The position numbers and the translations under genes were made by a program. Source: Leptospirales bacterium (GTDB lineage: Bacteria > Spirochaetota > Leptospiria > Turneriellales > JAOUFE01). From it: a DNA stretch of 25,834 bases. Shown here in pieces: positions 1 to 21,798 of the stretch (positions are counted from its first letter, which is position 1; every line of letters starts with the position of its first letter). The DNA lies in the NCBI GenBank assembly GCA_040326155.1, contig JBEQLE010000063.1, forward strand, positions 1-25,834, read 5' to 3'. The notes under the pieces were generated by a model. It had not been told where the DNA came from. It ran no database searches and worked only from the letters and a program-made list of their open reading frames with translations.

Positions 1-1838
1 ATGTTTCTTTTATTATCTATGGCTGTTTTTTGTGGTCTAATCAATTCAATTTCTTTCAACAAGTTTTGATACTCAATGCCAACTTCCATTCCTTTTTTAC
101 CTTCCAGGGAAGGCAGCTCTTTGAACTTTTTTTCCAGGTTTGCTTCTTCTTTTTGAATGTTTACATCCAGTTCGGTAGTGAGGGCTTCGATCTCAGTTTT
201 AGCAATGTTGAATTTACTATTCCACTGTTCGAGCAAGGTTTCCGCATCTTTTTTGATCTGATCTAGACGCACCTTCAGCTTTTGTAGAAGATCTTTATGG
301 GGTAATTTTTCGATAGCCGCGTCGCTGAGAAAAACCGTATCGGGCAAACCTTCATACACTGAAGCAAAAGCCCGCTCGACTTGAAGAATCTCGTCTTCTA
401 GTATTCTATTTTTCAATCTTTTTTCGGTTTCCAGTAAGGGGAGGATACCTAATTTTCCTTCAATTGATTTAAATTGTTTAAGACTCTCTTCCAATTTTGG
501 CAATTTTGCCACTGCGTCCTCAATCGTCGCAGTTTCAGAAAGAGCGTCTGTTATTTTTTTCCGGTTTAGAGCTAATTTTATAATTATTTCCTGAATTCGG
601 TTCTCAATGTCATCACCGGCGATATCTATAAACCGCTTTAGAACTTTGCGTTGATTTTCTGGATTCCTGGTAATCTCATATATCTCATTTTGCCCAAATA
701 TTTCGATGTTGGGTAAAAGGTCACGCGGCGTAAAACTGGATATCTCATTGTTATCCTCTTTAATTGTTGCACTTTCACCATGGCGACGAGAAATCGTATA
801 CAATTTGCCATTCATTCGGGAAGATCGAATTAGTAGTTCAACCCGCCCTTTTGATTTACCCAGATTTTCGTTAATAATGGCATCGTGTTGCCTTTGAGCT
901 TCTACCCCAATTGGTTTTTGCTCCAATGCATAACGGATGCATTCAAGCAACGTCGACTTACCGGCGCCCCGACCGCCAATCACGGCATTCAGGTGTTCTG
1001 AAAATTCGATATTTAGACCGTCCAGGTAGCCGCCCGTAATTTTTATGTTTTCGATGCGGGAATAATATTTTTCAGATACTTCGCTATTGAGACGAACACG
1101 GGACTGGGGGTCTTGAAAGGCAAGCTTAAACGAGTCGAAGGTTGGTTTAGTCATTTTGATAAGACAAGAAGCTTTTGGATTCGCCAAGTCTTCTGGAATA
1201 GCCACATCTTTTGCATTGAGGATGGCAATTGGTATTTCTCTTTTGTATTCGGGCTCTTTATTCGAAAGAATTCGGTAGTGCCCGGTCGTATCTTCACCGT
1301 TTAATTCATCTAGCGTAGAAGGAATTTGCGCCGCCAGTAATAGAGGGTTTTGCCACACATGGTTCAATTTTTTTTGAATAATCCCGTTATCATGTATGCA
1401 ATGTGCCGCATAAGCAAAGCCACCTAGTTCCGCGACTTTTTCTAATAATTTCTCTCCGCCCAATGTTGAAGGCCATGTATCTTTGACAGGATTTGTTAAT
1501 TCCAGAGCCCCAAGGTATCGATTCAATGTATCTTTTGTTGTGTTTTCAGGGAATAGGCACACGAAGTGAACTTTTTCAGTGGTGGAGATCTCAAAACCGG
1601 GAAAAACTACGATGTCGCTTTCTCGCATGAGTTTTTGAATGGCTTCCACCCCATCCACATTGCCATGATTGGCAAGACCAATCACTTTGATGTCATTTTC
1701 CAGAGCGTGACGAAGCAGTTCGTTATTATACTGCTCTTCTGATAATCCGTGATTCGCACCACGATACGTAATGTAATCAAAGGTATTTACCTGAAGGGCA
1801 CATTTCCAGAAGCTGGCTTTTGTATATGGTTGGGTCAT
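1..1838 (-). CDS. PHP-domain + P-loop (SMC/AAA-like) ATPase, TrlF/Ppl-like; 3' end runs off the window
   Basis: Missing from the ORF track because it has no stop in the window. ATG at 1838 gives MTQPYTKASFWKCALQVN..IGLANHGN..VFPGFEI..HFVCLF..AAH (PHP-like). Walker A LNAVIGGRGAGKSTLLE is in frame (Lys codon at 959), followed by charged coiled-coil-like sequence. Confidence 0.8.
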   Translation of the reverse strand, partial: MTQPYTKASFWKCALQVNTFDYITYRGANHGLSEEQYNNELLRHALENDIKVIGLANHGNVDGVEAIQKLMRESDIVVFPGFEISTTEKVHFVCLFPENTTKDTLNRYLGALELTNPVKDTWPSTLGGEKLLEKVAELGGFAYAAHCIHDNGIIQKKLNHVWQNPLLLAAQIPSTLDELNGEDTTGHYRILSNKEPEYKREIPIAILNAKDVAIPEDLANPKASCLIKMTKPTFDSFKLAFQDPQSRVRLNSEVSEKYYSRIENIKITGGYLDGLNIEFSEHLNAVIGGRGAGKSTLLECIRYALEQKPIGVEAQRQHDAIINENLGKSKGRVELLIRSSRMNGKLYTISRRHGESATIKEDNNEISSFTPRDLLPNIEIFGQNEIYEITRNPENQRKVLKRFIDIAGDDIENRIQEIIIKLALNRKKITDALSETATIEDAVAKLPKLEESLKQFKSIEGKLGILPLLETEKRLKNRILEDEILQVERAFASVYEGLPDTVFLSDAAIEKLPHKDLLQKLKVRLDQIKKDAETLLEQWNSKFNIAKTEIEALTTELDVNIQKEEANLEKKFKELPSLEGKKGMEVGIEYQNLLKEIELIRPQKTAIDNKRN

Positions 1839-1879
1839 TTTTGAATTTCTACTTGTAGAGTATATTATCGGCAACTTTT

Positions 1880-3541
1880 TCAGGCAACCTCAATCTCTCC
1901 CGACAGTAATTTCGGCAACAGCGAGTCGCGGATTTGGGTGAGGGTTTGGTTTTGTTTATCATTTTCAAGTATATCTTCTAATATTGAGTCCGTTAGTTTT
2001 GAAAAAGCTAAAAGTATTTTTGTCTCAGGTGCTAGCAATGGAATCTTTGAAAAATGTCCTGTGTTAAGGTTTAAGGTTGCACTTCCCCCACTAGCGAGAT
2101 CATGTAGGAGAGAATTTATACCAATTAAACAAAAATATAAATATGCGGAATGCGCGAAATTACTCGGAACTATACTATTAATTTGTTGGTTTGTATGGCT
2201 ATATTCCGAAGCTATACAAACCAAGCCAACAGTTGCAATACAACTAATACATATACTTCCTTTTGGTATTTCTTTTTTCTTTTGAGTTTCTGTACCTTTT
2301 TGGCTTAAGGTATCATTCGTTTTTGTTATAAATACATTACCATGCATATCTGGGATTTTAATAAAAGGTATATTTCCATCATAGTTAGTTGAGTCATTTT
2401 TTGGAGGTGTTTTTCCACAAATTACATCGCCCCATTCCGCTATAGTTTTCCACGACCACCCCTTCGGTATCTCCCCCAGCTCAGACTCCACCATCTCATC
2501 CGGAAACAGCGCGGCGGTAGAGGCGAGTTCTTTGCGTTTGGCGGCAGGCATTTTGTCGATCTCGGCATCGTTTTTTCCGGCGATGACACGCATCGCAGCG
2601 CGTTCGGGGTCTTCGCCTTTTGCTTTGGCATCGATCTTGGCTTTGACCGGGTCGAAGTCGACGAACCACGACTTGAAGATCGCCTGCGCCATCTCTTCGA
2701 GGGTTTGGTTAATTTGGCGATTGAGTTGGATTTTGTCGTCTAATGATTTTAATATTTGAACTGTTTCTTTTTGTTTTTCAATTGGTGGCACCTGTATTGG
2801 AAAGTTTGGTAATTCTTTTAAAGCAATGCGATCAACGGTACTACCATGAATAGTTCGCGCCTTTATCAAACTCTGGAAACTAGGGCCTAAATACGCATAT
2901 AGTAAAAATTCAGGAACGATTTTTTTTTCATCGGGTCGTAGTAAGCCCATACGACGACCTAAACAACATTTTAGACCTTGTGGGATTATTGCTGCCTCAC
3001 CTAAACGTGTTTCATAAGAGAACACCACATCATTAACTTTAGGTGTTATTCGACGAGTCCATTGAATGAAGTCTTCTTCACTTACATGAGCGGATTGCGT
3101 TAAATCTAAACTACCTTGATTTAGGGATCCTATTCCCAAAAATATTGGCCCGCTTTGTATTTTCTTAGGCGTTGCATGTGGACCATCATAAACTTCTGCA
3201 ATACTACCGATTGTGGTCCAACCCATCCCCCTAGAAATCCCCCCCACCAACTCAACATGCTCCTTTTCAATGTTCTTCCGAAACTGCTCGGGCACCTCGT
3301 CCCAGATGTGAGTATCCACACGAAAAGGAAGCGAGCTTTCTTCAAAGGCTTCTTTCAATTGGGAAACTTGGGATGCTTGCGTCGGCGAGGGGAACACCAC
3401 AATATCAAGATCAGATTCGGGTTTGGATGTCCATTTGACACGCGAGCCGTAGGCCCAGACTTTGACGCCCGGTAAGTATTGCTTGAAGAGGTCTAATATA
3501 ATTTTGCGTTGTTGGGTAGTTATGTCGATGGAATCGGTCAT
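1880..3541 (-). CDS. hsdS: Fusion of a minimal nucleotidyltransferase (MNT antitoxin, aa 1-~100) with a type I RM specificity subunit
   Basis: N-terminus has GS-x10-DxD (GSRVKWTSKPESDLD) and LPFRVD. The C-terminal part has two TRDs and the conserved regions PPIEKQ..LDDKIQLNRQINQTLEEMAQAIFKSWFVDF, ELGEIPKGW and RDSLLPKLLSGEI. Confidence 0.9.
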   Translation of the reverse strand: MTDSIDITTQQRKIILDLFKQYLPGVKVWAYGSRVKWTSKPESDLDIVVFPSPTQASQVSQLKEAFEESSLPFRVDTHIWDEVPEQFRKNIEKEHVELVGGISRGMGWTTIGSIAEVYDGPHATPKKIQSGPIFLGIGSLNQGSLDLTQSAHVSEEDFIQWTRRITPKVNDVVFSYETRLGEAAIIPQGLKCCLGRRMGLLRPDEKKIVPEFLLYAYLGPSFQSLIKARTIHGSTVDRIALKELPNFPIQVPPIEKQKETVQILKSLDDKIQLNRQINQTLEEMAQAIFKSWFVDFDPVKAKIDAKAKGEDPERAAMRVIAGKNDAEIDKMPAAKRKELASTAALFPDEMVESELGEIPKGWSWKTIAEWGDVICGKTPPKNDSTNYDGNIPFIKIPDMHGNVFITKTNDTLSQKGTETQKKKEIPKGSICISCIATVGLVCIASEYSHTNQQINSIVPSNFAHSAYLYFCLIGINSLLHDLASGGSATLNLNTGHFSKIPLLAPETKILLAFSKLTDSILEDILENDKQNQTLTQIRDSLLPKLLSGEIEVA

Positions 3542-3954
3542 TCCCAGGTTTCCTTTGTCATGGTTTGATATAAACCAATAGCATCATCGATAAATGCACC
3601 CATAATTTCCAGGCAATCTTTGGCTTTTTCACCACTGTAATCATGCGCCGTGGCTACCCGGGTATCTGCGTATTTGAGCCACTCTTCTATATTAGAAGAA
3701 AGCAGTTTGTTTTCTGCGGCGATGCGAAATATCGGTTTTGGGCTGTTGGGCATATCGGGTATACCCATCTCTTCGATAAGATACCTTTTTAAAACCTTCC
3801 ACATGCAATCATAGGTTGTCTCGAACCGTTGAATTACCGATTCGGCTACAGCTTCTTGCATTAAAGCAGGTAAAGAGGGGTCAAGGTTTTGATAGTTTTC
3901 CTGTTGCAGCTCTAGGTGTTTTAAAGCTTTTTGAAATTTATCGTATTCGATCAT
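3538..3954 (-). CDS. HEPN-domain (HI0074-like nucleotidyltransferase substrate-binding) toxin
   Basis: IQRFETTYD..WKVLKRYL..SPKPIFR..W..Y..R, plus an R-x4-H-x-Y motif (RVATAHDY). ATGA overlaps with hsdM upstream and MNT-hsdS downstream. Confidence 0.88.
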   Translation of the reverse strand: MIEYDKFQKALKHLELQQENYQNLDPSLPALMQEAVAESVIQRFETTYDCMWKVLKRYLIEEMGIPDMPNSPKPIFRIAAENKLLSSNIEEWLKYADTRVATAHDYSGEKAKDCLEIMGAFIDDAIGLYQTMTKETWE

Positions 3955-5624
3955 ATATCATACCCCAGCCCCGATAGATTCTTTTTGATCTCTTTTTCGA
4001 GTTGGTCGCTCTCTTTAAACTGTGTTTTAAGCTGCGCGCTCAGACGATTCATTTTTTCGGCAAAAGGTTCGGTGTCTTCTTCTTCGGCTTCTGCCCCTAC
4101 GTAGCGGCCGGGGGTGAGTACGTAGTCATGTTGTTTGATTTCGTCAAGGGTGGCGTTTTTACAAAAACCTGGAATGTCGTTGTATTCTTTATAGCTCGAT
4201 TCGGTTTTCCAGTTATGAAACGTCGAAGTTATTTTTTCAATATCATCTTCGGTAAAGTCGCGTAGTACCCGGTCTTTCATATAACCGAGGTTACGGGCGT
4301 CGATAAAGAGCACCTCACCACTTCTATCGCGGTTTTCATTTTTGCCGTCGGGACCACGGCGGGGTTTTTTATTTTTAGTTAGAAACCAGATGCAGGCGGG
4401 TATCTGAGTGTTAGTAAAGAGCTGTCCGGGCAATGCGACCATACATTCGACCATGTCAGCTTCGAGCAGGTTTTTACGAATTTCGCCTTCACCTGAAGTG
4501 TTCGAGCTCATCGATCCATTGGCCAGAAGCAAGCCGAGACTTCCGTTGGGTGCAAGATGATAAAGCATATGTTGCAACCACGCAAAGTTTGCATTACCTG
4601 AGGGTGGCAGGCCGTGTTTCCAGCGGGGGTCGTCATCTTTAATTCCGGCGTTCCACTCTTTCATGTTGAACGGGGGGTTGGCCATCACAAAGTCGGCTCG
4701 CAAGTCGGGGTGTTTGTCGCTCGTAAATGTATTGCCCGGTTCGCCCCCGAAGTTAAAGTCGATCCCGCGAATTGCCATGTTCATTGCGGCGAGGCGCCAT
4801 GTTGTTGGGTTGGACTCCTGACCATAGACCGAGATGTTGCCAAGTTTGCCACCGTGCTCTTCGATGAATTTTTCAGACTGCACAAAGAACCCGCCCGAAC
4901 CCATAGCTGGGTCATAGACACGCCCTTTGTAGGGTTGCAGCATTTCTACAATGAGACCAACAATTGATTTAGGGGTGAAGTACTGCCCCCCTTTTTTGCC
5001 TTCGGCAAGAGCGAATTGGCCCAAAAAGTATTCATAGACATGACCCAGAATATCTTTTGATTTAAGCGATTCATGTTGAAACGGTATTTCAGATATTTTA
5101 TCGATCAGCGAACCCAGAATATTCGAATCAATTTGACGCCGTACATAATTTTTATCCAAAACATTCTTGAGCTTCTTTTCGTTTTCTTTTTCTATTTGTT
5201 CAAGCGCGTCATCGATGAGTTTGGCTATAGAACTGAACTTGTATTTGAACTTTTTGCCCTTTTTAATTTCAATTTCCGTGCCGGGGGCCACCTTGGCATA
5301 ATTCTTCAAATTCTCCCATCGGGCAAGAGCCGGTACCCAGAAAACGTTTTTTTCGAGGTAGAAATCTCGCATTTCAAGCTCTTCGGCGATCATGACATCT
5401 GTTTCTTTATCGGGTTCTCCCAAAAAGTAATCGTGCTTAGGGTCGGTGAAATTCTTCTTGAGTTCAACTCGGCGTTCTTCGAAAGAATCCGAGACGTATT
5501 TTAAAAAGATGAGCCCCAATACCACGTGTTTGTATTCCGCGGCATCAACATTGGCTCGCAGTTTATCGGCAGCGTTCCAGAGTTTTTTTTCAAGATCTTT
5601 TAGATATATTTGTTCGTTTTGCAT
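3951..5624 (-). CDS. hsdM: Type I RM N6-adenine methyltransferase subunit M
   Basis: LEKKLWNAADKLR N-terminus, GQYFTP, motif I DPAMGSGG and motif IV NPPF. ATG at 5624 preferred over the upstream GTG at 5651, which lies inside the shared upstream element. Confidence 0.95.
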   Translation of the reverse strand: MQNEQIYLKDLEKKLWNAADKLRANVDAAEYKHVVLGLIFLKYVSDSFEERRVELKKNFTDPKHDYFLGEPDKETDVMIAEELEMRDFYLEKNVFWVPALARWENLKNYAKVAPGTEIEIKKGKKFKYKFSSIAKLIDDALEQIEKENEKKLKNVLDKNYVRRQIDSNILGSLIDKISEIPFQHESLKSKDILGHVYEYFLGQFALAEGKKGGQYFTPKSIVGLIVEMLQPYKGRVYDPAMGSGGFFVQSEKFIEEHGGKLGNISVYGQESNPTTWRLAAMNMAIRGIDFNFGGEPGNTFTSDKHPDLRADFVMANPPFNMKEWNAGIKDDDPRWKHGLPPSGNANFAWLQHMLYHLAPNGSLGLLLANGSMSSNTSGEGEIRKNLLEADMVECMVALPGQLFTNTQIPACIWFLTKNKKPRRGPDGKNENRDRSGEVLFIDARNLGYMKDRVLRDFTEDDIEKITSTFHNWKTESSYKEYNDIPGFCKNATLDEIKQHDYVLTPGRYVGAEAEEEDTEPFAEKMNRLSAQLKTQFKESDQLEKEIKKNLSGLGYDI

Positions 5625-5630
5625 GTCTAG

Positions 5631-5712
5631 TGTTCTACAATCTACCCCCACAACCCGCCGTCAATCTGATTCCCGCAGTGAAAATGAACCAGACTCCCCT
5701 TCCCCCAACTCC
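5631..5712. repeat. Conserved upstream element, copy 1 (homologous to 24820-24904); probable promoter/leader of the RM operon
   Basis: Shares TGT(T/G)CTACAA, an identical 14-mer AACCCGCCGTCAAT (5652-5665 vs 24843-24856) and AAATGAAnCAGnCTnCC. The minus strand contains TTGACG. Confidence 0.65.
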
Positions 5713-5956
5713 AAATCACGATTTTTTTTTCTTAGCTTCTATCTCTGCTTTTTTCAACATTCTAATAATAATACCATAAAAATCCGGAACATAATATTTA
5801 CGATTCAAGCGACCTTTTGAACCATTAATTACGAATTCTCAATTATCAAATCGTAATTAATGTTGTCGGGCAGCTTGTAATCTAATTATGATATGTAACG
5901 TTTTTTGTGCGAATGTTATCTTTGCCTTGGGGGGTTAGGTTTATTGTTTGACCTTT

Positions 5957-6067
5957 TCAAATATTTGCTTTATACTTTGCATCATCTTTTTTCCAGACAT
6001 ATTCTCGTTGAAAGGCCGGTACAAATAATTGGTTTTCATCAATACGATCTAGTATTTGGTTTAACAC
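5957..6067 (-). pseudogene. 5' stub of a DUF262 (GmrSD/SspE-type ParB-like) gene
   Basis: Translates as VLNQILDRIDENQLFVPAFQREYVWKKDDAK then YKANI*. P-x-FQR-x-Y-x-W is the DUF262 N-terminal signature. GAGGG precedes the GTG. Confidence 0.7.
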
Positions 6068-6119
6068 AAAAATACCCTCATCGACTGTCACTCAAACATC
6101 CGAAACTAAGCCCTCCCCC

Positions 6120-6171
6120 ATTTTGTAACATCGATGTTACAAAATAGTATTTCTGTGTGGGGCTATTGCAA
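6120..6171 (-). promoter_or_regulatory. Putative sigma70 promoter (TTGCAA-N16-TACTAT) with a perfect 26-bp palindrome (operator-like) at the predicted +1
   Basis: -35 at 6166-6171 and -10 at 6144-6149 on the minus strand. Palindrome ATTTTGTAACATC|GATGTTACAAAAT at 6120-6145. Confidence 0.45.
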
Positions 6172-6409
6172 GCATCGGGGTAAAATCAATGCAGTTGACA
6201 AGAATTTAAATTAAGATATTTTAGCTTGCCTGTCAATGAAAAATTGTGTCTTTATTGATGAGTTATCAAGAGAAAATACGGAAAATCTCGCAAATTTTAT
6301 TTTAAATAGTTGGAAAGATTCCTTGATTAGAATGAAAGCTAAAAAAAGTACTTTACCGCTCAAACTTATTGATAAAATGATTTGAAAATATTACAAAACA
6401 GGAGAATTT

Positions 6410-6841
6410 ATGAAGTTTAAATTAATCACAATAGTCGGGCTTATTACTCTTTTATTTGCAACTTCCTGCAAAAAAAATAAATCCAACCCGGCTTTCTCAA
6501 AAGATGCGGAAGTTTTTATTATTTCCCCATCTGACGGTGAAACCCTTTCTAACCCAATTACAGTAAAATTTGGTGTTAAAGGAATCGAAATTGCACCGGC
6601 AGGTTCCGAAATAGCTCATTCGGGACACCATCATTTGTTTATTGATGTTACTGAAATGCCTGATATGAAAGTTGCACTGCCTGCAAATGATAACATTAAA
6701 CACTTTGGCAAAGGTCAAACGGAAACATCGATTGAGTTGGCTCCGGGAGAACATACACTGCAATTGGTAATGGGAGATAAAAATCATACTGCGCATGCTC
6801 CGCCGGTAATTTCAAAAAAAATAAAAATTACCGTTAAATAA
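6410..6841 (+). CDS. DUF4399-domain lipoprotein
   Basis: RBS AGGAG, lipobox FATSC, and the motifs GHHHLFID, HFGKGQTE and LAPGEHTLQLVMGD..H. Confidence 0.85.
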   Translation: MKFKLITIVGLITLLFATSCKKNKSNPAFSKDAEVFIISPSDGETLSNPITVKFGVKGIEIAPAGSEIAHSGHHHLFIDVTEMPDMKVALPANDNIKHFGKGQTETSIELAPGEHTLQLVMGDKNHTAHAPPVISKKIKITVK

Positions 6842-7057: not shown

Positions 7058-7179
7058 AGGGAAGAGTGTATGCTTTGGAGGGTGAAAGCTTTCCCCCTCG
7101 CTCTGGCCGCCAGGCGTCCGCCGCTACCCCCTACGTTTTCTAGTGAACATGGCTTCATGTTTGAAGTTTTTTGTGAGTT
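7058..7179 (+). repeat. Structured dispersed repeat, copy R1
   Basis: Core TTTGGAGGGTGAAAGC(T/C)TTCCCCCTCGCT..GGC-[variable]-CCGCCGCTACCCCCT..TAGTGAACATGGCTTCATGTTTGAAGTTTTTTGTG, shared with 8096-8164 and 13925-14078. Confidence 0.9.
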
Positions 7180-7254
7180 CTATTTTCGTCGCTAGAACCA
7201 ATCGCCTGAATAATGATGAATCAACTTTAAATTACACCATCGATATTTATTTGC

Positions 7255-7283
7255 TTGACCATTTGGGTAATTTGTATTACAAT
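7255..7283 (+). promoter_or_regulatory. sigma70 promoter of the RHH-PIN operon (TTGACC-N17-TACAAT) with an overlapping inverted repeat TTGTA-T-TACAA
   Basis: -35 at 7255-7260, -10 at 7278-7283, inverted repeat at 7272-7282. The ATG starts 7 nt after the -10. Confidence 0.65.
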
Positions 7284-7289
7284 GTAGGT

Positions 7290-7508
7290 ATGAGACAAGT
7301 GATTTCGATAAGTCTAGATGAGGAAACTAAAGAGAGACTGGACAACATTTCTCAGTCCCGGCACCTGAATAAAAGTTTTATCGTAAAAGAAGCATTGAGA
7401 AAGTACTTATTTCTTGAAGAGATGGAACTTACTAGAACAGAGCTTCGACCCTATGCTGAAAAACAAGGGTATGTTACGGACGAAGATATTTTTAAAAACA
7501 TCTCTTGA
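7290..7508 (+). CDS. Ribbon-helix-helix (CopG-like) antitoxin
   Basis: MRQVISISLDEETKERLD..S..NKSFIVKEALRKYL, and a C-terminal PYAEKQGYVTDEDIF. Start moved from 7143 (inside repeat R1) to the ATG at 7290. Confidence 0.85.
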   Translation: MRQVISISLDEETKERLDNISQSRHLNKSFIVKEALRKYLFLEEMELTRTELRPYAEKQGYVTDEDIFKNIS

Positions 7509-7912
7509 AAATCATATTAGACACAAATGTAATAATCTCGGCTTCAGTGTTCGGTGGACTGTCGGCGGATATTCTGAGTTATTGTTATGAGAGACATGAA
7601 GTGTACATTTCTGAATTTATCCTGGATGAGTTTCATAGAGTTTTAAAGGAAAAATTGAAAGTTCCTGACAATTTAATTGCATCAAAAATCATTTCATTTC
7701 AGAAAAATCTCAATTATGTCGTTCCAGATAATCCAATACCAGATCTGTGCTCTGATAAAGATGATAACCCTATTTGCCAATTAGCACTGTATGTTAATGC
7801 TGATTACATCATTACTGGTGATAAAGAATTTCAAAAAGTTAATAATATAGATTCTACCAGAATAATAAGTCCTCGGGAATTCTGGATACATAAAGATAAT
7901 CAAATACACTGA
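7505..7912 (+). CDS. PIN-domain toxin (VapC-like, TIGR00305-type)
   Basis: ILDTNVIIS, E, DKDDN and ADYIITGDK acidic PIN motifs. TTG start overlaps the antitoxin stop. Confidence 0.9.
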   Translation: MKIILDTNVIISASVFGGLSADILSYCYERHEVYISEFILDEFHRVLKEKLKVPDNLIASKIISFQKNLNYVVPDNPIPDLCSDKDDNPICQLALYVNADYIITGDKEFQKVNNIDSTRIISPREFWIHKDNQIH

Positions 7913-8465: not shown

Positions 8466-9296
8466 TCAAGTCGTACACATCAAACAAGGAACTTCATCGT
8501 CTTCTTCATCGAGTACATCGGCGAGTACTTCGTGCAAGGGTTTGTTGGGTTTGTTTTTAGATTCACGGGCGACACGCTTTTGGTTGTCAGAAATAATTCG
8601 ATCTTTTCGAAGTAGAAGTTCATCCAACGTTTCACCCTCAACCCAGTTGTAGGTTCTGCCGTCGGAATGCTTTTGCTCGTAAGCTTTCGCCTTTTCAAAA
8701 AGATCGGGATGATTTTTCGCCAGCATCACCCACTCATATTTTCTCTGGAAAAAACAAAAATAACATCCTGACCGGCTGCGCCATTGGTAATAAGCAGGCA
8801 TGCCAATACCACTTTCATCGAGAATTCGAATGACATCTGGTTTTTCAATACCGTCATACATAAACGGATACCTTGGTCGAATGTTTGATTTTTTAGAGAT
8901 ATACCCTTCGCGATTTTCGTCGGCGCGAATTCCGACATAAGTGATGGCCTCATCATCGCCGATAAATGCCTCAAGAGGTTTAATTTTCATTTGGATAGTA
9001 CACCAGCGTTGTTGCGCCGAGGGTAAAAACCCGTTGTAGAGTTCGAGCCAGTGATCAAATCCTTTATCGGCGCTCAAGTATTCAATATGTATACCTAGTC
9101 GTGCTTTGAGTTTATCTAAAAATTCATAAGTCTCGTCGAGCTCTTTATGAGTATCGCAAAAGAAATATTCCATGTCGGGAACTTTATCATGAAGATAAAT
9201 TGCCAACGCCGCCGAGTCTTTCCCCCCGGAGAGACCGAGAACATGTCGCTGTTTTTTTTGTCTGTCTTTTTGGTATATTTTTTCGGATGCAAGCAT
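8466..9296 (-). CDS. sspD: PAPS-reductase family protein of an Ssp DNA phosphorothioation system
   Basis: PP-loop SGGKDS, RWCT, GIRADE, SRSGCYFCFFQ and a C-terminal CxxC. Lies downstream of DUF4007 and ATPase genes. Confidence 0.85.
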   Translation of the reverse strand: MLASEKIYQKDRQKKQRHVLGLSGGKDSAALAIYLHDKVPDMEYFFCDTHKELDETYEFLDKLKARLGIHIEYLSADKGFDHWLELYNGFLPSAQQRWCTIQMKIKPLEAFIGDDEAITYVGIRADENREGYISKKSNIRPRYPFMYDGIEKPDVIRILDESGIGMPAYYQWRSRSGCYFCFFQRKYEWVMLAKNHPDLFEKAKAYEQKHSDGRTYNWVEGETLDELLLRKDRIISDNQKRVARESKNKPNKPLHEVLADVLDEEDDEVPCLMCTT

Positions 9297-9299
9297 AAA

Positions 9300-12200
9300 C
9301 TACCCCTTTATAATATTATTTCGCCGGTCCGTTTCACCTTGGTCTGTCGAAGTTTCCCGAACGTGACTCAACTCATCCTTCCGGGTATTTAGTAAAACAC
9401 GATCTGCCAACAAAGACAACAGAGCTTTACTGTTTTTCTCACTTTGTAACAAATGGTTTTTATCTAATAGATGATCTAAAATCTCGTTTAATTTATCTTT
9501 ATTTTTTTCGTCCACCCAGATCACTTCATCCATCTCATTACCATCGGGTTTCGTTATTGTAATTTTTCTGGCCTCAAAACCTTCGCCCTTGTTACCTGCC
9601 CTGGTAACCAAAGTTTCAAGATTTTGAAAACGACGAGCAATTTGGGTAATATTCATTTCAAAACTATCAACATCTTCATCTTTAAAAGATTCTGCGGGTT
9701 TATCGGCAATCACCATAACCAACGCTTCCAGCCATTTTTCATCGTCTGCCCCGGTCTCTTTTGCCGCTAAAATAAACCTTTTTAACAAAGGTTCCATAGC
9801 CCCTTTTTCAAGACGGCGCGCACGTACTCGAAGCTCTTCGCGTAGTTTCTCTTTTTCGCTGCTGATACTAAAATAGTGAAAAATAAAATTAAGGCATTTA
9901 GAGAGAAGATCGCCATATGCATTTTGAATTTCAGACAAAGATTTTATCAGTTTTGTTTTAATCTCTTGAATCGTTTTCTCATCTAAGCGATTCGAAATAT
10001 CTTCGTCCTCGTTAATAAATCCTAAAGCATATGGAATCTCAGTAAATAAGAGGTAATCAGGTTCGCGTGCATTGTCAATGACTAACATCAGAGCACGACT
10101 TTCATTCGCGATATTTCTGGTTTGCCGAGTATACTTTGGCAAAGCCTTCACAAATTTAATAAACGGTTTTACCACTTGCAGCAATGATGCATTTTGCATA
10201 TCCGTTTTATTACTAACACCTGTAAAAACGGTTTCAAGTTCTTTAAAATAACTTCCTTTTAGACCGCCAATATCAAAATGTTTTACCGAAAAGTTTTCGG
10301 GTCTTTTCAGAAGTAGTTCTATCGATGCTTTACCAATAAACGGAACAAAACTGCCATTGTGGTACAAACTCAAAGAGTCGGTATTTTGAATTAATACCAG
10401 CAAAAATAGAAGGGGCATCAAAGACTCACTAACCCCATAAGGGGGCAGAGCCATATGGTCGTATAAATCTCGAAGAGTTCTAATCTTTTTCTTATTCTGT
10501 TTCAGGCAATACGCTTCCACTTCCTTCAAGGTTTTGTACAACCCGCTTTTCGACGTTGGATGTTGAAACACCCACTTTTGGTCTTGGTAAATATATATTT
10601 CATTTTGTATAAAAAGAGATTCAAAGATAGAAGTCTCAGGACCATAACCGGCCAGACCAAGCCTCTCTAAACCATGTGAGCTGAACATCGCTTCCATCAG
10701 TAACTTTTGAGCTTTCGCCCCTTGCGTTGTTAACTGGCTTCGGTGAATCAACTCATTGTGTAAAACAACACCTTTTGTATACGTCCGTTTTAAAAGATCG
10801 GAAAGAAGTGTATTCAAAGCCGATGGGGACGGAGTCTGGTATCTCTTTTTACCGTGGTAAAGCAGGGTTCGGGCAGCTAAAATATTGGCAGTTTGAAAGG
10901 TGGAATCAAGTGTCTTCTTCAACAACTTTTCGGTTATAAAAATACGTTGGTCGACCTCTTTAGCAGCGACCCGGTCTAAAGTAAGTTGCTTATTCTCAGC
11001 GCGAACCCTTTTTAAAGCGTCATACTCTAAAACAATCGAACGCAAGGAGCTTACCGTTTTGGGAACCAAACAAAGAACCGGTTTTTTTTGACTATTGAGA
11101 TCTAAAAGAGGGGTAAATTTAATCTGGTCTACATAGTACAATAACAGTCCATCTGATTTTATGGGTTCGTCGAATAGACTTTCACTGTCTATCGTCGAGT
11201 CGATAAATAACCGTTCAAAATAGCGAAGTCTACCTGTTTCATAACTATACTTTTGAGCAATCAACGGTCTCATGTAAAAATTTTCATTTAACAATTTGGC
11301 AAGCGGAGCTTTGTTGTTTTGCTTCGCCTCACTCACCGCCTTCTCAATATTAAAATCAGACCCCTGCCAGATTCTATACTCATCCAGGCCTTTACGATAT
11401 ACAATAAGACCTTTGTCTTCAAGTTCAGATAAAATACCAAGCCAATAGGCACGATCATTTTTAAGGTTCGTTTGGTCACCTTGTGTACTTGCCGGACTAT
11501 CCAAAAGAGCCAAAATCGTGAGACTCTTTTCTGACTTGAGTGCACCACCTGTAGAGAGCAGATTCAAAAGTCCGATTGTTTTAATAACATTCTGGTGGTC
11601 TAAACCAGAGTAACGAGCCTCTTCGACTTTCTCCTGAATTTCAACCCACCGTTGAAAACCGGGACGAAACCCGATACCGGACGATTCAATAAAATAGTCA
11701 TAAAGTCTATGGAGCTTCAACGAGGGCCAGTCAGAAGTATGTAAATCGTATTCATTTAAAAACATTCCCATGGAGTGAGGTTCCAAACCAGCTAAAAAAG
11801 TAAATAAAGAGCGATCATTCTGTGCAAATTTTTGACACAACAAAGGCAACAGACGAGCCGAAATCGGATGCAAAGGGTAAAGTTTTGTATAGACCTCTAA
11901 AGGAACCCCTTTAAACGCAGAATTATTCTGTAGCACTTTTTGCCAACCCAGAGTGTGAGCGGCCAATTGTTTTTGCAGTGCAGGTTTAGCCAATTCACCA
12001 GTATGTTCCATGGCGTGGGTCATAATCGAAAGGGTCTCTTCAGGACTTTCATAAAAAGGGATGTCCTCAAATCGGCCCTGGACTTTCGCCCACTCATTGC
12101 GGTGAGCCGGAGTCATGTTTCCCGCATATTCATCAAAAGCCTGGTGCAAAAGTCCAAAAAAGTAAATTTTATTATTCGTCTTTTCACCGGAGTCCACCGA

Positions 12201-12854
12201 CATCTCAGCCAACTGCTGTAAAAAATAGAGATCGCCAGAAGCCGAATCTGAAGCAGCGTACTCCAGCGTCTTTCCGAGTTCATCGACAATAAGAAGCAGG
12301 CCGCCAGCACTTTGGGATGTTTTTTGAATAAGCGTTAAAACCTCGCCTGCCTCCATGGCAGAAATATCTTTTTGTAAAACAGTTTCGAGATCTTTTAGCA
12401 AAGAAGGTTTCGCCCCCCGTTTGCCAGCAAAGTAGTTCCGAACTCCACTTTCAAGAGCTCTTAAAACCGAGACCATCACAGGCTCCCGAGAAGCTGTTAC
12501 AACCGCCCGTAAAAATCCGTTATCTGGTATTTGCTTTTCAAAATAAGAGGCCAGTGGCTTCGAAACATTTCTTAAAATAGAAATAGCATTTTTATAAACT
12601 GGCTCCGTTTTACCGGCCACAAGCGAGCTGAAAAAATGGGCAAAAGCCGACTTCCCGGTTCCATACACTCCGGTCAACGTATAGGCAGAAACAGAGCGTC
12701 TATCTTTTGCAGCCGCGACAACCCTCTCTAAAATTTCTTCACCTTTGTGGGTCACCACATAACCAAGAACGCTATCCGCCATTTGCAAGTCGCGCTCCAG
12801 ATTTACCGAGCGAGAGTACCTGCGCCGTATGTGTATCTGTTTTGATAATAACAT
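9300..12854 (-). CDS. sspC: Large P-loop ATPase of the Ssp system
   Basis: RSVNLERD, Walker A GVYGTGKS, Walker B LLIVDELGK, EWAKVQGRF, YPLHP and QNDRSLFTFL. Its start overlaps the sspB stop (TGATG). Confidence 0.85.
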   Translation of the reverse strand: MLLSKQIHIRRRYSRSVNLERDLQMADSVLGYVVTHKGEEILERVVAAAKDRRSVSAYTLTGVYGTGKSAFAHFFSSLVAGKTEPVYKNAISILRNVSKPLASYFEKQIPDNGFLRAVVTASREPVMVSVLRALESGVRNYFAGKRGAKPSLLKDLETVLQKDISAMEAGEVLTLIQKTSQSAGGLLLIVDELGKTLEYAASDSASGDLYFLQQLAEMSVDSGEKTNNKIYFFGLLHQAFDEYAGNMTPAHRNEWAKVQGRFEDIPFYESPEETLSIMTHAMEHTGELAKPALQKQLAAHTLGWQKVLQNNSAFKGVPLEVYTKLYPLHPISARLLPLLCQKFAQNDRSLFTFLAGLEPHSMGMFLNEYDLHTSDWPSLKLHRLYDYFIESSGIGFRPGFQRWVEIQEKVEEARYSGLDHQNVIKTIGLLNLLSTGGALKSEKSLTILALLDSPASTQGDQTNLKNDRAYWLGILSELEDKGLIVYRKGLDEYRIWQGSDFNIEKAVSEAKQNNKAPLAKLLNENFYMRPLIAQKYSYETGRLRYFERLFIDSTIDSESLFDEPIKSDGLLLYYVDQIKFTPLLDLNSQKKPVLCLVPKTVSSLRSIVLEYDALKRVRAENKQLTLDRVAAKEVDQRIFITEKLLKKTLDSTFQTANILAARTLLYHGKKRYQTPSPSALNTLLSDLLKRTYTKGVVLHNELIHRSQLTTQGAKAQKLLMEAMFSSHGLERLGLAGYGPETSIFESLFIQNEIYIYQDQKWVFQHPTSKSGLYKTLKEVEAYCLKQNKKKIRTLRDLYDHMALPPYGVSESLMPLLFLLVLIQNTDSLSLYHNGSFVPFIGKASIELLLKRPENFSVKHFDIGGLKGSYFKELETVFTGVSNKTDMQNASLLQVVKPFIKFVKALPKYTRQTRNIANESRALMLVIDNAREPDYLLFTEIPYALGFINEDEDISNRLDEKTIQEIKTKLIKSLSEIQNAYGDLLSKCLNFIFHYFSISSEKEKLREELRVRARRLEKGAMEPLLKRFILAAKETGADDEKWLEALVMVIADKPAESFKDEDVDSFEMNITQIARRFQNLETLVTRAGNKGEGFEARKITITKPDGNEMDEVIWVDEKNKDKLNEILDHLLDKNHLLQSEKNSKALLSLLADRVLLNTRKDELSHVRETSTDQGETDRRNNIIKG

Positions 12855-13828
12855 CAGTTATTTACCGCTATTCGAATTGGCTCTTCTTCTATTAATTCAC
12901 TATAACTGTGGCGATCACTACTGCCATAATAGCCTTGTAAAATTTCATGATAAAGATGCATGGCGGAACCTTCAAAAACCATATGGGCAACGCCAGCTTG
13001 GTTAGCGACTTTCAAGTTTTTATGCTTGGCGCTCACCTGTTCAATCGCCACTTCAATTTCAGATTCGGTAATTTTACAAACCAGACCTGGGCTCGATGTT
13101 TCATACGTAAGTTTCGTTAGTGATATAGTTTGAGCCACTTCTGCGGTTGAGCTGACATAATCCAGACACAGAGATACAATAATTTCAGCAGGCAGATTGC
13201 TCTTTTCGCCGGTATGAAATACATATTTCTTCTTCTCATAATTTTCAGGGTACTTATGTATTAGATCGAGTATTACAAAAGGTGAATCGAGGCTATCTTC
13301 TATGAATTTATCACCCACCGGGTCGGCCAAATACATTCTCAGTAAACAGTTTATATCTTTTTCTATGGATGATGTTGCAATGGGTTTTGCCGGGCCTTGC
13401 TGCTTCACGTAAAGATCTAAAGCAGTCACAGCTTCTTCGCTCGTGAAATCGCGAAAATTAAACTCATTAAAAAGATAAAACCAGGCCGTAGCTTGCTCCC
13501 CGTTTGTGGCCAATTTATAATGCAACAACCACAACGAAGCCGGGTCCTCTAAATAGGGGTCCCAACCAGTTTTGCCAAACAAGTGGTTCGCAAACGATGT
13601 GGTCTTATACCCCGCCCTGTTTTCCATCTCTTCCATAAGCCCAAACGCACTCAACCAATACCGAATGGCATTCGCCATATTCTTACCCACGCCTAGGTGA
13701 ATATGCGCCTCGTTTTTATTGTAAAAGAGGGCCGGGTCTTTTTTCACGTGGTCGAACCCTTTTTTAAGCCACCCGAAGCGGGGATGGAAAGTTTCGTGTC
13801 GTGCGAATACAGTGTGTATCTCCCCCAT
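12854..13828 (-). CDS. sspB: DUF4007 family protein (SspB nickase-like)
   Basis: FARHETF..R.GWLKKG, LGVGKNM..AIRYW and DPYLED..SLWLLHY. Start placed at the ATG at 13828 because the longer ORF starts inside repeat R3. Confidence 0.87.
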   Translation of the reverse strand: MGEIHTVFARHETFHPRFGWLKKGFDHVKKDPALFYNKNEAHIHLGVGKNMANAIRYWLSAFGLMEEMENRAGYKTTSFANHLFGKTGWDPYLEDPASLWLLHYKLATNGEQATAWFYLFNEFNFRDFTSEEAVTALDLYVKQQGPAKPIATSSIEKDINCLLRMYLADPVGDKFIEDSLDSPFVILDLIHKYPENYEKKKYVFHTGEKSNLPAEIIVSLCLDYVSSTAEVAQTISLTKLTYETSSPGLVCKITESEIEVAIEQVSAKHKNLKVANQAGVAHMVFEGSAMHLYHEILQGYYGSSDRHSYSELIEEEPIRIAVNN

Positions 13829-13924
13829 TCCAGCGATTCCAACAATATGTATAAAGCATATATTGCTGTACGTAGTTATGTATAATGTATATATCGAGAG
13901 GTCAAGCGAAATAGCACTGTTTAC

Positions 13925-14078
13925 AGGAAAGAGTGTATGTTTTGGAGGGTGAAAGCCTTCCCCCTCGCTTTGGCTTTTTTGTCGGTGTCGCATATATGCG
14001 ACACCGACAAAAAGAGCCGCCGCTACCCCCTTCGGTTTATAGTGAACATGGCTTCATGTTTGAAGTTTTTTGTGGGTT
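13925..14078 (+). repeat. Structured dispersed repeat, copy R3, carrying a perfect 38-bp palindrome (13976-14013)
   Basis: Aligns end to end with R1, except that a 10-nt segment is replaced by 42 nt containing TTTTTGTCGGTGTCGCATA|TATGCGACACCGACAAAAA. Confidence 0.9.
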
Positions 14079-14114: not shown

Positions 14115-14843
14115 TTATCGAGTTTGCCATAAATTTATTTTAAAAGTTTTACTATCATCGCCATAGGTCAGAGGTATAGCTCCTTGAATAATCTGATATT
14201 TATCGCCTTTATTCATAATATTATCATCATTCATATCAAGAACGCATAATATATTACCGTAACTTCCGGGGGAGTAAATATGCTTCTGCTGTAATGGTAG
14301 CCTTACCTGTGTCATCATATAAAACACCAACAGAATCAGCAAAACCTATATTCTGTATTTTACTTAAATCAATAGCTAAAAAAGCAGATTTGCTTATTAA
14401 ACCAGCAGCCATTTTATTTAATATAGAAGAATCAACGACAGCACTCAAGGTACTTAAAACCTGCAAATTGTTGAAATGTATCGTATTTTCTGTGACGATG
14501 CCAGTTATGATTTGACCAACATCGGTTGTATCGTCTACCCTGTTGCCATTAACATCAACTTTGATAATTATAGTATATGTATGACCAGCTATTAAACCAA
14601 CCATTGCTTTTCTATAATTGCCATATGAATCTACTTCTTCACGACTAGGTTTCAAGGAGAATGTAATTTCCGGTACTCTTAGATTCGTGGTCTCGTCAAT
14701 TGTTGTAATAGAGATTAAACCATTTGCCTTGCCACCAGAAAAACTTATATTTATTGTTGAGCCACTCGCAGGATAAACAATAAAAAATCCTCCTAAAAGT
14801 AAAATTATTACAATCGCCTAAATGAATAATTATATTTTTTCAT
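14115..14843 (-). pseudogene. Frameshifted exported/surface protein gene
   Basis: The ATG at 14843 stops after 11 codons. Another frame, open 14817-14254, begins with hydrophobic AIVIILLLGGFFIVYPAS. The C-terminus appears to continue in the frame of ORF 14115..14342. Confidence 0.6.
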
Positions 14844-14869
14844 ATTTTAATCCTTCTCATATATTTATA

Positions 14870-15370
14870 TTAGGGGCAACCACCATATAATGGCTCTGGA
14901 ACATTAGTGGTTGTCGAAACGGGTATGTCTAAATAGCAATGACTGCTACAAAAGCAACATCTAGAGCCAACCCCAGGTACGTTACACCAACAACCAGGTT
15001 TCTTAATCGTGTAGTACGTAGTAGTTACAACTTGACAAGTTCCAGAGGTTTGAACGGAAGCAGAAACAACTGATGCCGATGGGTTGCAGTCGCCGCAAGA
15101 TGTTTTAGAATCTTTTGGTATTGATGAAATTCCTACACTCGTTTGGCAGCCTAGTGCATTTACATTTGGCTCACATCTATAACCACTTTTACAGGGTGTC
15201 GATGGATCATTGTCATGATCAACGCAATCATAAAAACATTCATGTTTAGCAGTACAACCTACTATTGGTAATGTACTTGTCTCCTCCCCTCCTCCGCAAG
15301 CAGAGCTAACAATAATAGTTAATAAACTAACCAGTAATAAATTCTTTTTTAACATTAAAGTTGGGTTCAT
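14870..15370 (-). CDS. Cysteine-rich lipoprotein, unknown function
   Basis: RBS AAGGAG, signal peptide ending SSA-C-GGG, and 16 further Cys in about 140 aa. Confidence 0.75.
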   Translation of the reverse strand: MNPTLMLKKNLLLVSLLTIIVSSACGGGEETSTLPIVGCTAKHECFYDCVDHDNDPSTPCKSGYRCEPNVNALGCQTSVGISSIPKDSKTSCGDCNPSASVVSASVQTSGTCQVVTTTYYTIKKPGCWCNVPGVGSRCCFCSSHCYLDIPVSTTTNVPEPLYGGCP

Positions 15371-15413
15371 AAATAGTCTCCTTAAATTAAATAATAATTC
15401 GATATTCTAAAGC

Positions 15414-20425: not shown

Positions 20426-21669
20426 ACGGTTACTTCTTTTGTTGTATTTAATTCACCACTAAATGCTTTTTGTAATATTGATTTTTTTAGTTCGTCAAGA
20501 TCATTGAGTTTTTGTTGGTAGATGGTTTCGAGTTTTTTCGTTTCAACAGATAGGGCATCGAGTTTGGCAACGATTGTTTGTTGGGTTTTTAGGGTTGGAA
20601 GATAGAGTTTATATGCGAATAAATGGTTACGATTTACTTTGGGCATTCCTGCCCGTTCCGAACCAAGAATCGCATATTCGGTAAAATCTTTACTCAACAA
20701 CATATGGTATAAAAAATCCTTTGTCATTTTCTTCTTGCTTGGTGATAAAGGATAGATATCTGCGCTACATAACCCTTGAAAATCGCAATTTACTACTTTC
20801 ATAAGATAAGGTCGTATTTTACTGTAAAGAACCATTGATTCATCAAATAAGAATTTACCAGAAATAAGATTTTCTTCTTTTGCCGTTTTCAATTCCAATA
20901 AGGTACCCTTTTGAGATTCAATATTTCCAGCACCAATGTGAATTAAATTCTGAAATTCAGGTTTTCTCGGGTCTATTAATTTTGACGATATTTCACAAAC
21001 CTCACCCAACGTCTTCTCTTCCCATTCATTCCCTTTGTTTTCAAACACCGATTGCAAATAACTCTCAAAAAGTTCTTTAGCATTCTTAAGGTTTTGTTCA
21101 GCATTGGATTTTGCTTTGGCTATGACTGCAAAAGCTTTGTCGAGAATAGATACGATGCGTTTTTGTTCGGGGAGTGATTTTGGGTAAGCAATTATAAACA
21201 CTTCTAACTGGGCTTTAGTAATCGCTTGCCTTGTTGCCCCTTGTTCGCCCGTAAATAATAATTTATCTTTATAAAATTTTGATGTAAGTAATAAGTTCAA
21301 AAATGTAGGGTCGACTAACTCTTTGTTTGTCCTGATGATTGAAACATGCTGATTTACTCTTGCAGGTAAATAATCTGTTGGTATAATACAGCATCTTGCC
21401 ACAGAAGCACCTGTAATGTTCAACAATACGTCATTTTCTTGAAGCGCAACATTATCTAAAGCTTTTGCTTGTTGATCGTCTATGAACGCAAGGTTTCTTT
21501 CCCTAAATTCGAAGTCATGAACATTCATGCTTCGTACTAATGAAATTCCCTCTGTTTTATAGCTTGCATTACCGCCTCGCGGCGTAGCACCACTTCCAAT
21601 TTTACTCGCTACATCCCCCAACTTCTTACTTGCCCACCCTTTCGGTAGGCTCCGTGCATCCATTTTCAT
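20422..21669 (-). CDS. hsdS: Type I RM specificity subunit S
   Basis: LPKGW..KLGDV, two TRDs, LPEQKRIVSILD..ELFESYLQSVF, and ELKKSILQKAFSGEL. ATGA overlap with hsdR. Confidence 0.95.
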   Translation of the reverse strand: MKMDARSLPKGWASKKLGDVASKIGSGATPRGGNASYKTEGISLVRSMNVHDFEFRERNLAFIDDQQAKALDNVALQENDVLLNITGASVARCCIIPTDYLPARVNQHVSIIRTNKELVDPTFLNLLLTSKFYKDKLLFTGEQGATRQAITKAQLEVFIIAYPKSLPEQKRIVSILDKAFAVIAKAKSNAEQNLKNAKELFESYLQSVFENKGNEWEEKTLGEVCEISSKLIDPRKPEFQNLIHIGAGNIESQKGTLLELKTAKEENLISGKFLFDESMVLYSKIRPYLMKVVNCDFQGLCSADIYPLSPSKKKMTKDFLYHMLLSKDFTEYAILGSERAGMPKVNRNHLFAYKLYLPTLKTQQTIVAKLDALSVETKKLETIYQQKLNDLDELKKSILQKAFSGELNTTKEVTV

Positions 21670-21764
21670 ATCAAATCCAAAATAGAGTCTGCACTCGGAT
21701 TGTCATATAGAGTTTTTGCATATTGTGTGTTTTCTGTTATTTTCATTGTTGGTTTCTTTTTTAC

Positions 21765-21793: not shown

Positions 21794-21798
21794 ATCGT

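Follow-up and report, generated by a model that had tools for sequence, protein, structure and literature searches.

A widespread arrangement of HEPN/MNT pairs in type I restriction-modification operons, with the presumed antitoxin as a part of HsdS

Why should the presumed antitoxin of a toxin-antitoxin pair be built as the N-terminal domain of HsdS, the specificity subunit of a type I restriction-modification (R-M) system? The question is raised by contig JBEQLE010000063.1 (assembly GCA_040326155.1) of a Leptospirales bacterium, analyzed here over its positions 1 to 25,834 (in nucleotides, nt) and called the window below, where a HEPN gene and a minimal nucleotidyltransferase (MNT) domain are found within a type I operon, the latter joined to HsdS. 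The feature is apparently a widespread and so far undescribed form of the type VII-like HEPN/MNT pair, in which the antitoxin is a part of HsdS. As for its history and role, we consider the chances to be about even that the antitoxin of a HEPN/MNT pair residing in the type I operon lost its stop codon, became the N-terminal domain of HsdS, and serves addiction, or stabilization, of the operon.

The genes form a chain on the minus strand, in the order hsdM, HEPN gene, MNT::hsdS, and both junctions are 4-nt ATGA overlaps (ATATGATCG and GAATGACC). The methyltransferase subunit gene hsdM occupies positions 3951..5651 (566 amino acids (aa) counted from the first GTG, with an alternative ATG start nine codons inside), and its product matches PF02384 N6_Mtase (E 3.4e-113), PF12161 HsdM_N (E 5.1e-23) and the PADLOC model MTase_I (E 1.2e-179). 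Its stop codon overlaps the start of the HEPN gene (3538..3954, minus strand, 138 aa), a member of the HI0074 / NTase_sub_bind family encoding a presumed RNase toxin, the stop codon of which in turn overlaps the start of the MNT::HsdS fusion, a single uninterrupted open reading frame (ORF) of 553 aa (1880..3541, minus strand). This chaining by ATGA overlaps had been stated in the initial annotation of the window, and both the ORF coordinates and the junction sequences confirm it. The scan for promoters and terminators in positions 1-6500 was uninformative, yielding 14 promoter-like sites vs 13.6 expected and seven terminator-like sites vs 7.1 expected.

The first 99 residues of the fusion protein (3245..3541, minus strand) constitute the MNT domain, a presumed adenylyltransferase antitoxin, with residues 14-98 matching the Pfam families Polbeta and NTP_transf_2 (E 3.6e-9 and 7.8e-8, respectively). 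The exact GSx10DxD motif reported in the initial annotation is located at residues 32-46 (GSRVKWTSKPESDLD, 3404..3448, minus strand), and its residues G32, S33, D44 and D46 are invariant among 40 and among 60 aligned fusions. The domain is followed by the short linker GGISRGM (residues 100-106, 3224..3244, minus strand), which leads to the first target-recognition domain and in relatives is variable, measuring about 10-15 residues. The remaining residues 107-553 (1883..3223, minus strand) are the HsdS part, in which two target-recognition domains are accompanied by a helical region in the center and a helix at the C-terminus; it matches Methylase_S (PF01420) in two stretches (E 1.1e-39), and the PADLOC model Specificity_I covers it nearly at full length (residues 114-552 vs profile positions 13-446 of 459).

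The AlphaFold2 model of the fusion, built on 60 fused sequences, has a mean predicted local distance difference test (pLDDT) score of 90.2 and a predicted template modelling (pTM) score of 0.77. It consists of two well-folded units, the MNT (about residues 5-99) and a complete HsdS (residues 107-547), connected by a low-confidence linker (pLDDT below 50 for residues 100-104), and the MNT has no long C-terminal helix after the strand 96-99. In the Foldseek search the HsdS part matches 1yf2 (E 3.5e-24) and also 5ybb, 7vs4 and 3okg, as well as 2y7c. The MNT matches HI0073 (1no5; TMt 0.84-0.85, root-mean-square deviation 1.8-1.9 A, 39-40% identity), the Legionella MNT antitoxin 8xeo_B (TMt 0.83) and 7bxo_E (TMt 0.60), its identity to solved proteins being about 19-40%; the sequence match to HI0073 has E 4e-15.

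A separate HsdS started from the internal Met106 was considered and rejected: the G-rich stretch runs right up to the ATG, and this Met is not conserved in relatives. As no Met is conserved among relatives where the HsdS part begins, a separately translated HsdS is unlikely. Judging from the continuous frame in 68 of 80 related loci and the lack of a conserved internal Met, MNT and HsdS are probably made as one protein.

The product of the HEPN gene is a single-domain protein of the family PF08780 NTase_sub_bind (E 7.9e-23, 81.3 bits vs the cut-off of 31.8); no PADLOC model matched it when the window proteins were scanned. The Rx4HxY motif, which had been placed by the initial annotation at 3637-3660, is exact and corresponds to residues 99-106 (RVATAHDY, 3637..3660, minus strand), with R99, H104 and Y106, the latter being the presumed AMPylation site. 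The second motif, IQRFE, is at residues 41-45 (3820..3834, minus strand), and Q42 and E45 correspond to the Q44/E47 pair of the Legionella HEPN, which together with Mg2+ has been proposed as the RNase active site (PMC11586414). The alignment of the window HEPN with its 53 partners from related loci (54 sequences) has a mean column identity of 76%; H104, D105, R43 and F44 are invariant in it, R99, T102, Y106 and E45 are conserved in at least 90% of sequences, and Rx4HxY is intact in 57 of 59 full-length HEPN partners.

By sequence, the closest HEPN relatives are TTHA0636, HI0074 and TTHA0048 (Protein Data Bank entries 1wwp, 1jog and 1wty). The profile of the 54 sequences matches 1jog with E 2e-11 and the Legionella pneumophila HEPN toxin 8xdj with E 2e-4, and in the latter alignment IQRFE is placed against IQAFE, and RVATAHDY against RNQTSHTY (RxxTxHxY). 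The matches to the Shewanella-type HepT chains 5yep_B and 6m6u_B are weaker (E 4-5e-3).

The closest known systems are two, HI0073/HI0074 of H. influenzae (1no5, 1jog) and the Legionella pneumophila module (8xdj, 8xeo), and the window pair shares with them the PF08780 HEPN with IQxFE and RxxTxHxY, and the short MNT with GSx10DxD and without the long C-terminal helix. The Legionella pair is experimentally assigned to type VII: its MNT, which also has no long C-terminal helix, poly-AMPylates Y105 of RX4HXY, and GSX10DXD mutants are inactive (PMC11586414). More generally, in characterized members of the family the MNT AMPylates the Tyr of Rx4HxY (PMC11586414, PMC7641770). The features of type VII systems present in the window are the GSX10DXD MNT, the RX4HXY HEPN with the acceptor Tyr, the adjacency of genes in one operon and the homology to a characterized pair. 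The founding type VII system, HepT/MntA of Shewanella oneidensis, has the same motifs and the same proposed poly-AMPylation chemistry next to Rx4H (PMC7641770), but MntA has an additional C-terminal helix used for binding (PMC11586414), and the window MNT belongs to a different branch. The initial annotation had described the pair in terms of the HepT/MntA chemistry; homology to type VII pairs supports this biochemistry well, while the closest systems turn out to be HI0073/HI0074 and the Legionella pair rather than the Shewanella one.

The differences from these systems lie in the setting. Whereas HI0073 and the Legionella MNT are separate proteins of 100 aa, the window MNT forms the N-terminal domain of the 553-aa HsdS, and, unlike both modules, the window pair resides inside a type I R-M operon. 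In usual MNT-HEPN pairs the MNT gene comes first (PMC3710099), while in the window and its relatives the HEPN gene does. An MNT within a larger polypeptide is also known from FhepTA, a fused MNT-HEPN protein of Shewanella acting by oligoAMPylation; there, however, the fusion partner of the MNT is the cognate toxin, while in the window the partner is the unrelated HsdS and the toxin is separate (PMC13000451). According to Anantharaman et al., HEPN-M proteins (PF08780/DUF86) sometimes occur in fusions with MNT, REase or nucleic acid methylase domains (PMC3710099).

The architecture is common. The search for fused homologues (query residues 1-125, targets of 304-968 aa, E <= 1e-3) produced 410 candidates, and the fused architecture is present in 368 protein clusters among them; the best 120 of the 368 all have PF18765 and PF01420 and all retain GSx9-11DxD (120/120). 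The guess of the initial annotation that similar fusions may already exist in databases was right, these clusters being annotated only as 'restriction endonuclease subunit S'. The exhaustive HMMER pass over 1.84 billion representatives yielded 3033 proteins at E <= 1e-3, 908 at E <= 1e-10 and 93 at E <= 1e-30. The motif is retained in 146 of the best 150 HMMER representatives, and 115 of these 150 are at least 300 aa long, though this ratio overstates the fused forms, since clustering at 50% identity splits the variable HsdS more than the short MNT.

In the genome scan, with one genome per species and the locus sampling anchored on the MNT, at least 600 pattern matches were obtained, 533 were confirmed, and the best 80 loci were retained. 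They represent at least 16 named phyla (24 loci from Pseudomonadota, 17 from Acidobacteriota, 11 from Nitrospirota, and others). MNT and HsdS share one stop-free frame in 68 of these loci, and GSx9-11DxD is present in 79. Counting NTase and Methylase_S architectures next to HI0074 genes, as had been suggested in the initial annotation, we find a full-length HEPN gene directly upstream in 52 of the 68 fused loci; in seven more it is partial or interrupted (in L009 and L038 by an extra MNT in between, in others by a frame split or truncation), and nine have none. The gene order in related loci is always HEPN, then MNT, which places the C-terminus of the MNT next to hsdS, and the HEPN stop and the MNT start overlap or abut.

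Several variants of this architecture were observed. In two tandem MNT-MNT-HsdS forms (L009:7653-10208 and L038:7458-9623) the family MNT is preceded by an additional, more divergent one (about 54 bits); SDLD is changed to SDLG in the second MNT of L038, while the first one there retains the motif. In L002 and L011, a further HEPN-like match and another MNT, more distantly related (63-73 bits), are found a few hundred bases upstream, so that some operons carry two HEPN/MNT modules. Fusions of 562-770 aa (P0009, P0019, P0038, P0046, P0050, P0073, P0075, P0119) contain DUF559 and MTES_1575 after HsdS, and thus a nuclease-like module may be joined to the same polypeptide. Proteins of 324-352 aa (P0004, P0031, P0044, P0067, P0087) apparently consist of the MNT and a single target-recognition domain, that is, a 'half' HsdS; if real, they would bring two MNT domains into each specificity dimer, but some of them may be truncated genes.

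The module exists in three states: as a free-standing pair, embedded in an R-M operon without fusion, and embedded and fused. Free-standing HEPN-then-MNT pairs beside unrelated genes account for six of the 80 loci (L047, L058, L071, L073, L074, L079), and another one is found on a Legionella adelaidensis plasmid. The search for short proteins returned 223 clusters of 30-303 aa, the 120 listed being 54-72% identical; many have about 100-110 aa, and some may be fragments from contig ends. The embedded unfused state is represented by two Acetobacter plasmids with the order hsdM-HEPN-MNT-hsdS-hsdR, in which the MNT stop codon is located 2 nt before the hsdS start or overlaps it. Given such a distance, a single small change would fuse MNT and HsdS, and where genes are packed so tightly, the loss of a stop codon is the obvious way for the fusion to arise.

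The embedded fused state is not limited to one subfamily. In a second one (about 38% identical), plasmid pZMOB01 of Zymomonas mobilis ATCC 10988 carries hsdM, a HEPN gene of the HI0074 family, a gene for a 527-aa MNT::HsdS with the ATGA overlap, and hsdR. The fused form is also present in Methylomonas methanica R-45363 (L068). The search of plasmids with the HEPN protein gave six distant records. The deletion of hsdSp in Zymomonas ZM4 (PMC8432527) was considered as a possible test of addiction and discarded, as the system on pZM32 is a plain hsdR-hsdM-hsdS one that includes neither HEPN nor MNT.

The unfused loci are 12 in total, and apart from the six free-standing pairs they include two cut by insertion sequences (L014, L061), three truncated or continuing in another frame (L023, L056, L057), and one with 345 further residues that show no Methylase_S match (L010). 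In the MNT-domain tree (137 rows) fused and free forms are intermixed, with 27 state changes vs 39-45 in the first 10 of 200 shuffles; this tree is weak, having 99 residues per row, and some of its short rows may be contig-end fragments. Its use for dating the fusion was set aside, and we draw neither an origin nor a direction from it.

Whether the genes are inherited as a unit was assessed in 35 loci that combine an adjacent hsdM with a full HEPN gene and a fused MNT. The pairwise-distance matrices of MNT, HEPN and HsdM are correlated (r 0.58, 0.58 and 0.54, Mantel p 0.001 in each case), and the mean divergence is similar for the three (0.35, 0.34 and 0.34), hence the genes have long travelled together. 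The anatomy of the operon, the homology of its components, their conservation and their inheritance as a unit are established.

In 47 of the 80 loci, the same strand carries an hsdR-like ORF further downstream when a family-matched HsdR is used as the phmmer query, and in 31 of 80 with the second HsdR of the window as the query. The gap between hsdS and hsdR often holds varied defense-type genes, as seen in loci L001-L037, covered by the Pfam scan of the first 56 of 113 downstream ORFs: RVT_1 (reverse transcriptase), Fic, SIR2_2, TIR_2, KAP_NTPase, DUF1828/1829, Abi_C and DUF3644. In the window itself, hsdM adjoins upstream, hsdR is not visible, and the operon leaves the left edge after a gene for a TrlF-family / Ppl-like ATPase (3..1874, minus strand), co-directional with and downstream of hsdS and cut by the edge. 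Its product has a metallohydrolase-like N-terminus and an AAA/SMC-type ATPase domain (NCBIfam TrlF_fam_ATP, E 3e-89; Ppl_antiphage, E 1.2e-25; PADLOC Ppl, E 2e-19). As this gene fills the slot between hsdS and hsdR of the relatives, hsdR of the window operon is probably located beyond the left edge.

The HEPN gene is absent and the MNT intact in the nine fused loci mentioned above, and the slot of HEPN-less loci contains HicA/HicB (L040), DUF4258 (L018) or Fic (L059) genes. With other toxin-antitoxin genes residing there, it resembles a general cargo slot, not a dedicated sensor. The loss of HEPN with MNT::HsdS retained is the harmless direction for a toxin-antitoxin pair. Separately, in L017 and L075 the last approximately 15 HEPN codons persist just before the MNT start, and in four HEPN-less loci a small protein with the shared motif VVVNGYE.GYDDLSP and no Pfam match is encoded between hsdM and MNT::hsdS (L017:7017-7259, L028:7632-7955, L040:7109-7516, and also L014).

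How such an operon might work can be outlined from the characterized relatives, the toxicity of HEPN, its AMPylation and the biological role being read from homology. The 138-aa HEPN protein, as a dimer or tetramer, would cleave RNA. The MNT, tethered to HsdS by the flexible linker, would use ATP and the GSx10DxD motif to add AMP units onto Tyr106, and these, standing beside R99-x4-H104, would keep the RNase silent; as both domains are homologous to characterized type VII pairs, AMPylation of Tyr106 is the likely neutralization step. The presumed antitoxin, being an enzyme, need not match the toxin in amount, and small quantities should suffice, so that it could ride on a low-abundance subunit, and fusion to a scarce protein would be workable. 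Due to the overlapping stop and start codons, HEPN would be translated first and the MNT then made only as a part of HsdS, and thus the silencing of fresh toxin would depend on continued synthesis of intact HsdS. Such a cassette would make hsdM-hsdS hard to lose, truncate or shut off, and could also provide a crude backup growth arrest when the host gene expression collapses.

The addiction role has to be weighed against readings in which the fusion means either more or less. According to one of them, the main idea of the initial annotation, the HsdM2-HsdS complex acts as a sensor, and phage anti-restriction proteins (DNA mimics such as Ocr or ArdA, and Stp-like peptides), or destruction of HsdS, would leave newly made HEPN un-AMPylated, so that active RNase accumulates and aborts the infection as PrrC and Ronin do. 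In both of these precedents, HsdMS restrains the toxin until an anti-restriction protein arrives (PMC3710099, bioRxiv 10.1101/2023.04.06.535777, PMC12707154), and Anantharaman et al. proposed a PrrC-like coupling for R-M-linked HEPN genes in general (PMC3710099). As in PrrC/EcoprrI, a type I R-M operon harbors the gene of a HEPN-superfamily RNase, but PrrC is a large ABC-ATPase-HEPN protein restrained by a non-covalent contact with the R-M proteins, whereas the window HEPN is a 138-aa single domain without an ABC-type ATPase; moreover, it is the toxin itself that is held by the R-M proteins in the case of PrrC, and the modifying enzyme that is joined to an R-M protein here. Ronin (hsdS, hsdM and ronA) likewise has a toxin in a type I-like locus, with the lethality suppressed by HsdMS; RonA, however, is a 61-aa membrane peptide, and Ronin has no hsdR (bioRxiv 10.1101/2023.04.06.535777), while the candidate toxin in the window is a soluble HEPN and hsdR is present in the 47 related loci counted above, which means that there is a real restriction activity to guard. 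The fused form is dominant (68 of 80 loci, and 115 of the best 150 representatives have at least 300 aa, subject to the clustering bias), and it has been kept over deep divergence together with HsdM. On the other side, the silencing is covalent and no AMP-removing enzyme is known for type VII systems (PMC7641770), hence the release of HEPN would require new synthesis and be slow; the same operon in Acetobacter works without the fusion; and nine of 68 fused loci have no HEPN, the slot being occupied by the unrelated HicAB, DUF4258 or Fic. We regard this reading as unlikely. Its more specific version, in which MNT::HsdS is a sensor with an enzymatic latch, intact free HsdS keeping the new HEPN AMPylated and a phage DNA mimic or the loss of HsdS leaving unmodified HEPN to halt translation, seems to us rather doubtful.

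The opposite reading is that HEPN/MNT is selfish cargo in a variable slot, and the stop loss that joined the MNT to HsdS created no functional coupling. The linker is short, variable and modelled with low confidence, and if flexible, it would make the fusion harmless, to persist and spread with the operon; the abutting or overlapping MNT and hsdS genes of Acetobacter, the intermixing of fused and free forms on the (weak) MNT tree, with 27 changes among 137 rows, other toxin-antitoxin genes in the HEPN-less slot and the similar cargo slot between hsdS and hsdR are all consistent with it. Still, the fusion is the majority state over at least 16 phyla and about 35% divergence, with the catalytic residues intact, and it is also found in the second, approximately 38% identical subfamily of Zymomonas. 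If it were costly, reversion by a new stop and start would be easy, yet clean unfused R-M-embedded forms are rare in the sample, where, of the 12 unfused loci, insertion sequences interrupt two, and three others are truncated or shift out of frame. The absence of coupling is therefore on the improbable side, although to be taken seriously. Finally, HEPN and MNT could be not a toxin and its antitoxin, but two subunits of a nucleotidyltransferase, as HI0073/HI0074 were originally read; HsdS would bring this enzyme to DNA, and its substrate would be something else, for instance the R-M complex, DNA ends or some phage protein. Pfam calls the HEPN family 'substrate binding protein', the MNT stays conserved where the neighboring HEPN is gone, and tandem MNT-MNT-HsdS forms exist. 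At the same time, the characterized relatives, including the HI0074-like Legionella pair, are toxin-antitoxin systems in which the MNT modifies HEPN (PMC11586414), the HEPN retains Rx4H and Q..E, candidate RNase sites, together with the acceptor Tyr, and free-standing copies beside unrelated genes look like mobile toxin-antitoxin pairs, which makes this explanation very improbable.

Not all observations favor addiction by a type VII-like pair. The HEPN protein scores 55.3 bits against TIGR01987 HI0074, just below the cut-off of 55.8. The MNT reaches 25.5 bits against the curated NCBIfam model MntA_antitoxin (NF047752), with the cut-off of 60, and as this equivalog cut-off is missed, the pair is placed in the HI0073/HI0074 branch and is not a HepT/MntA orthologue. 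In 11 HEPN-less loci the MNT is as conserved as in the rest (mean 129.5 vs 128.6 bits) and keeps the motif, whereas decay would be expected if silencing the neighboring HEPN were its sole job; perhaps the HEPN genes were lost recently, a HEPN encoded at another genomic site takes part, or the MNT has some further function. For a chromosomal island addiction is difficult to prove, and type I systems are not known to require an addiction module. All these points weigh against the favored reading. Taken together, however, the comparative evidence argues for addiction or cargo, addiction being the alternative offered by the initial annotation, considering the nine HEPN-less loci among 68 fused ones, other toxin-antitoxin genes in the slot, the unfused operons and the covalent silencing, and the same evidence makes a guard less likely than addiction, a backup function or neutral cargo.

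The initial annotation was aware of no functional description of such fusions, and no description of an MNT-HsdS fusion was found in open-licence PubMed Central papers or bioRxiv, subscription journals being outside the scope of this search. In particular, the accessible text of PMC3710099, Makarova 2009, Makarova 2013, the 2025 EcoSal review and the Ronin preprint yielded no passage on it, although the legend of Figure 5 in PMC3710099 defines 'RM_TRD' and that figure may show such an operon. HEPN/MNT pairs have been described as the most abundant toxin-antitoxin family, and the physiological trigger of type VII systems is an open question according to Yao et al. (PMC7641770).

With hundreds of clusters from at least 16 phyla, the architecture is common, and given the annotation as 'restriction endonuclease subunit S' only, defense-system finders miss the toxin. 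The antitoxin enzyme is joined here to a protein that has a known job and known phage-made inhibitors, which allows for concrete and cheap trigger experiments, and natural controls are available in harmless bacteria that are in culture, fused on pZMOB01 and in L068, unfused on the Acetobacter plasmids. If the enzymatic latch were real, it would add to PrrC and Ronin a third, widespread type of restriction guard, and type VII toxin-antitoxin systems would have their first physiological trigger. If the fusion is neutral, it is still a clean example of operon packing creating multi-domain defense proteins.

The whole window is a defense island. Apart from the genes described above, it contains a 566-aa DUF7305 protein and ORFs of 133, 166 and 185 aa without a Pfam match (14254-17114, minus strand, and 25203-25760, plus strand), and a pair of overlapping genes with RHH_1 and PIN_3 domains, a VapBC-type toxin-antitoxin module (7143-7912, plus strand). 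Positions 8466-13993 of the minus strand encode a DUF4007 protein (379 aa), an 1184-aa protein without a Pfam match and a PAPS_reduct-domain protein (276 aa), a trio which we take to resemble SspB-SspC-SspD of single-strand DNA phosphorothioation systems. Another type I R-M system (17969-24815, minus strand), complete and separate from the MNT::hsdS operon, consists of hsdM (22203-23657), hsdS (20422-21669) and an EcoEI-type hsdR (17969-20425), with a SIR2_2-domain gene (23721-24815) just upstream, all on the minus strand.

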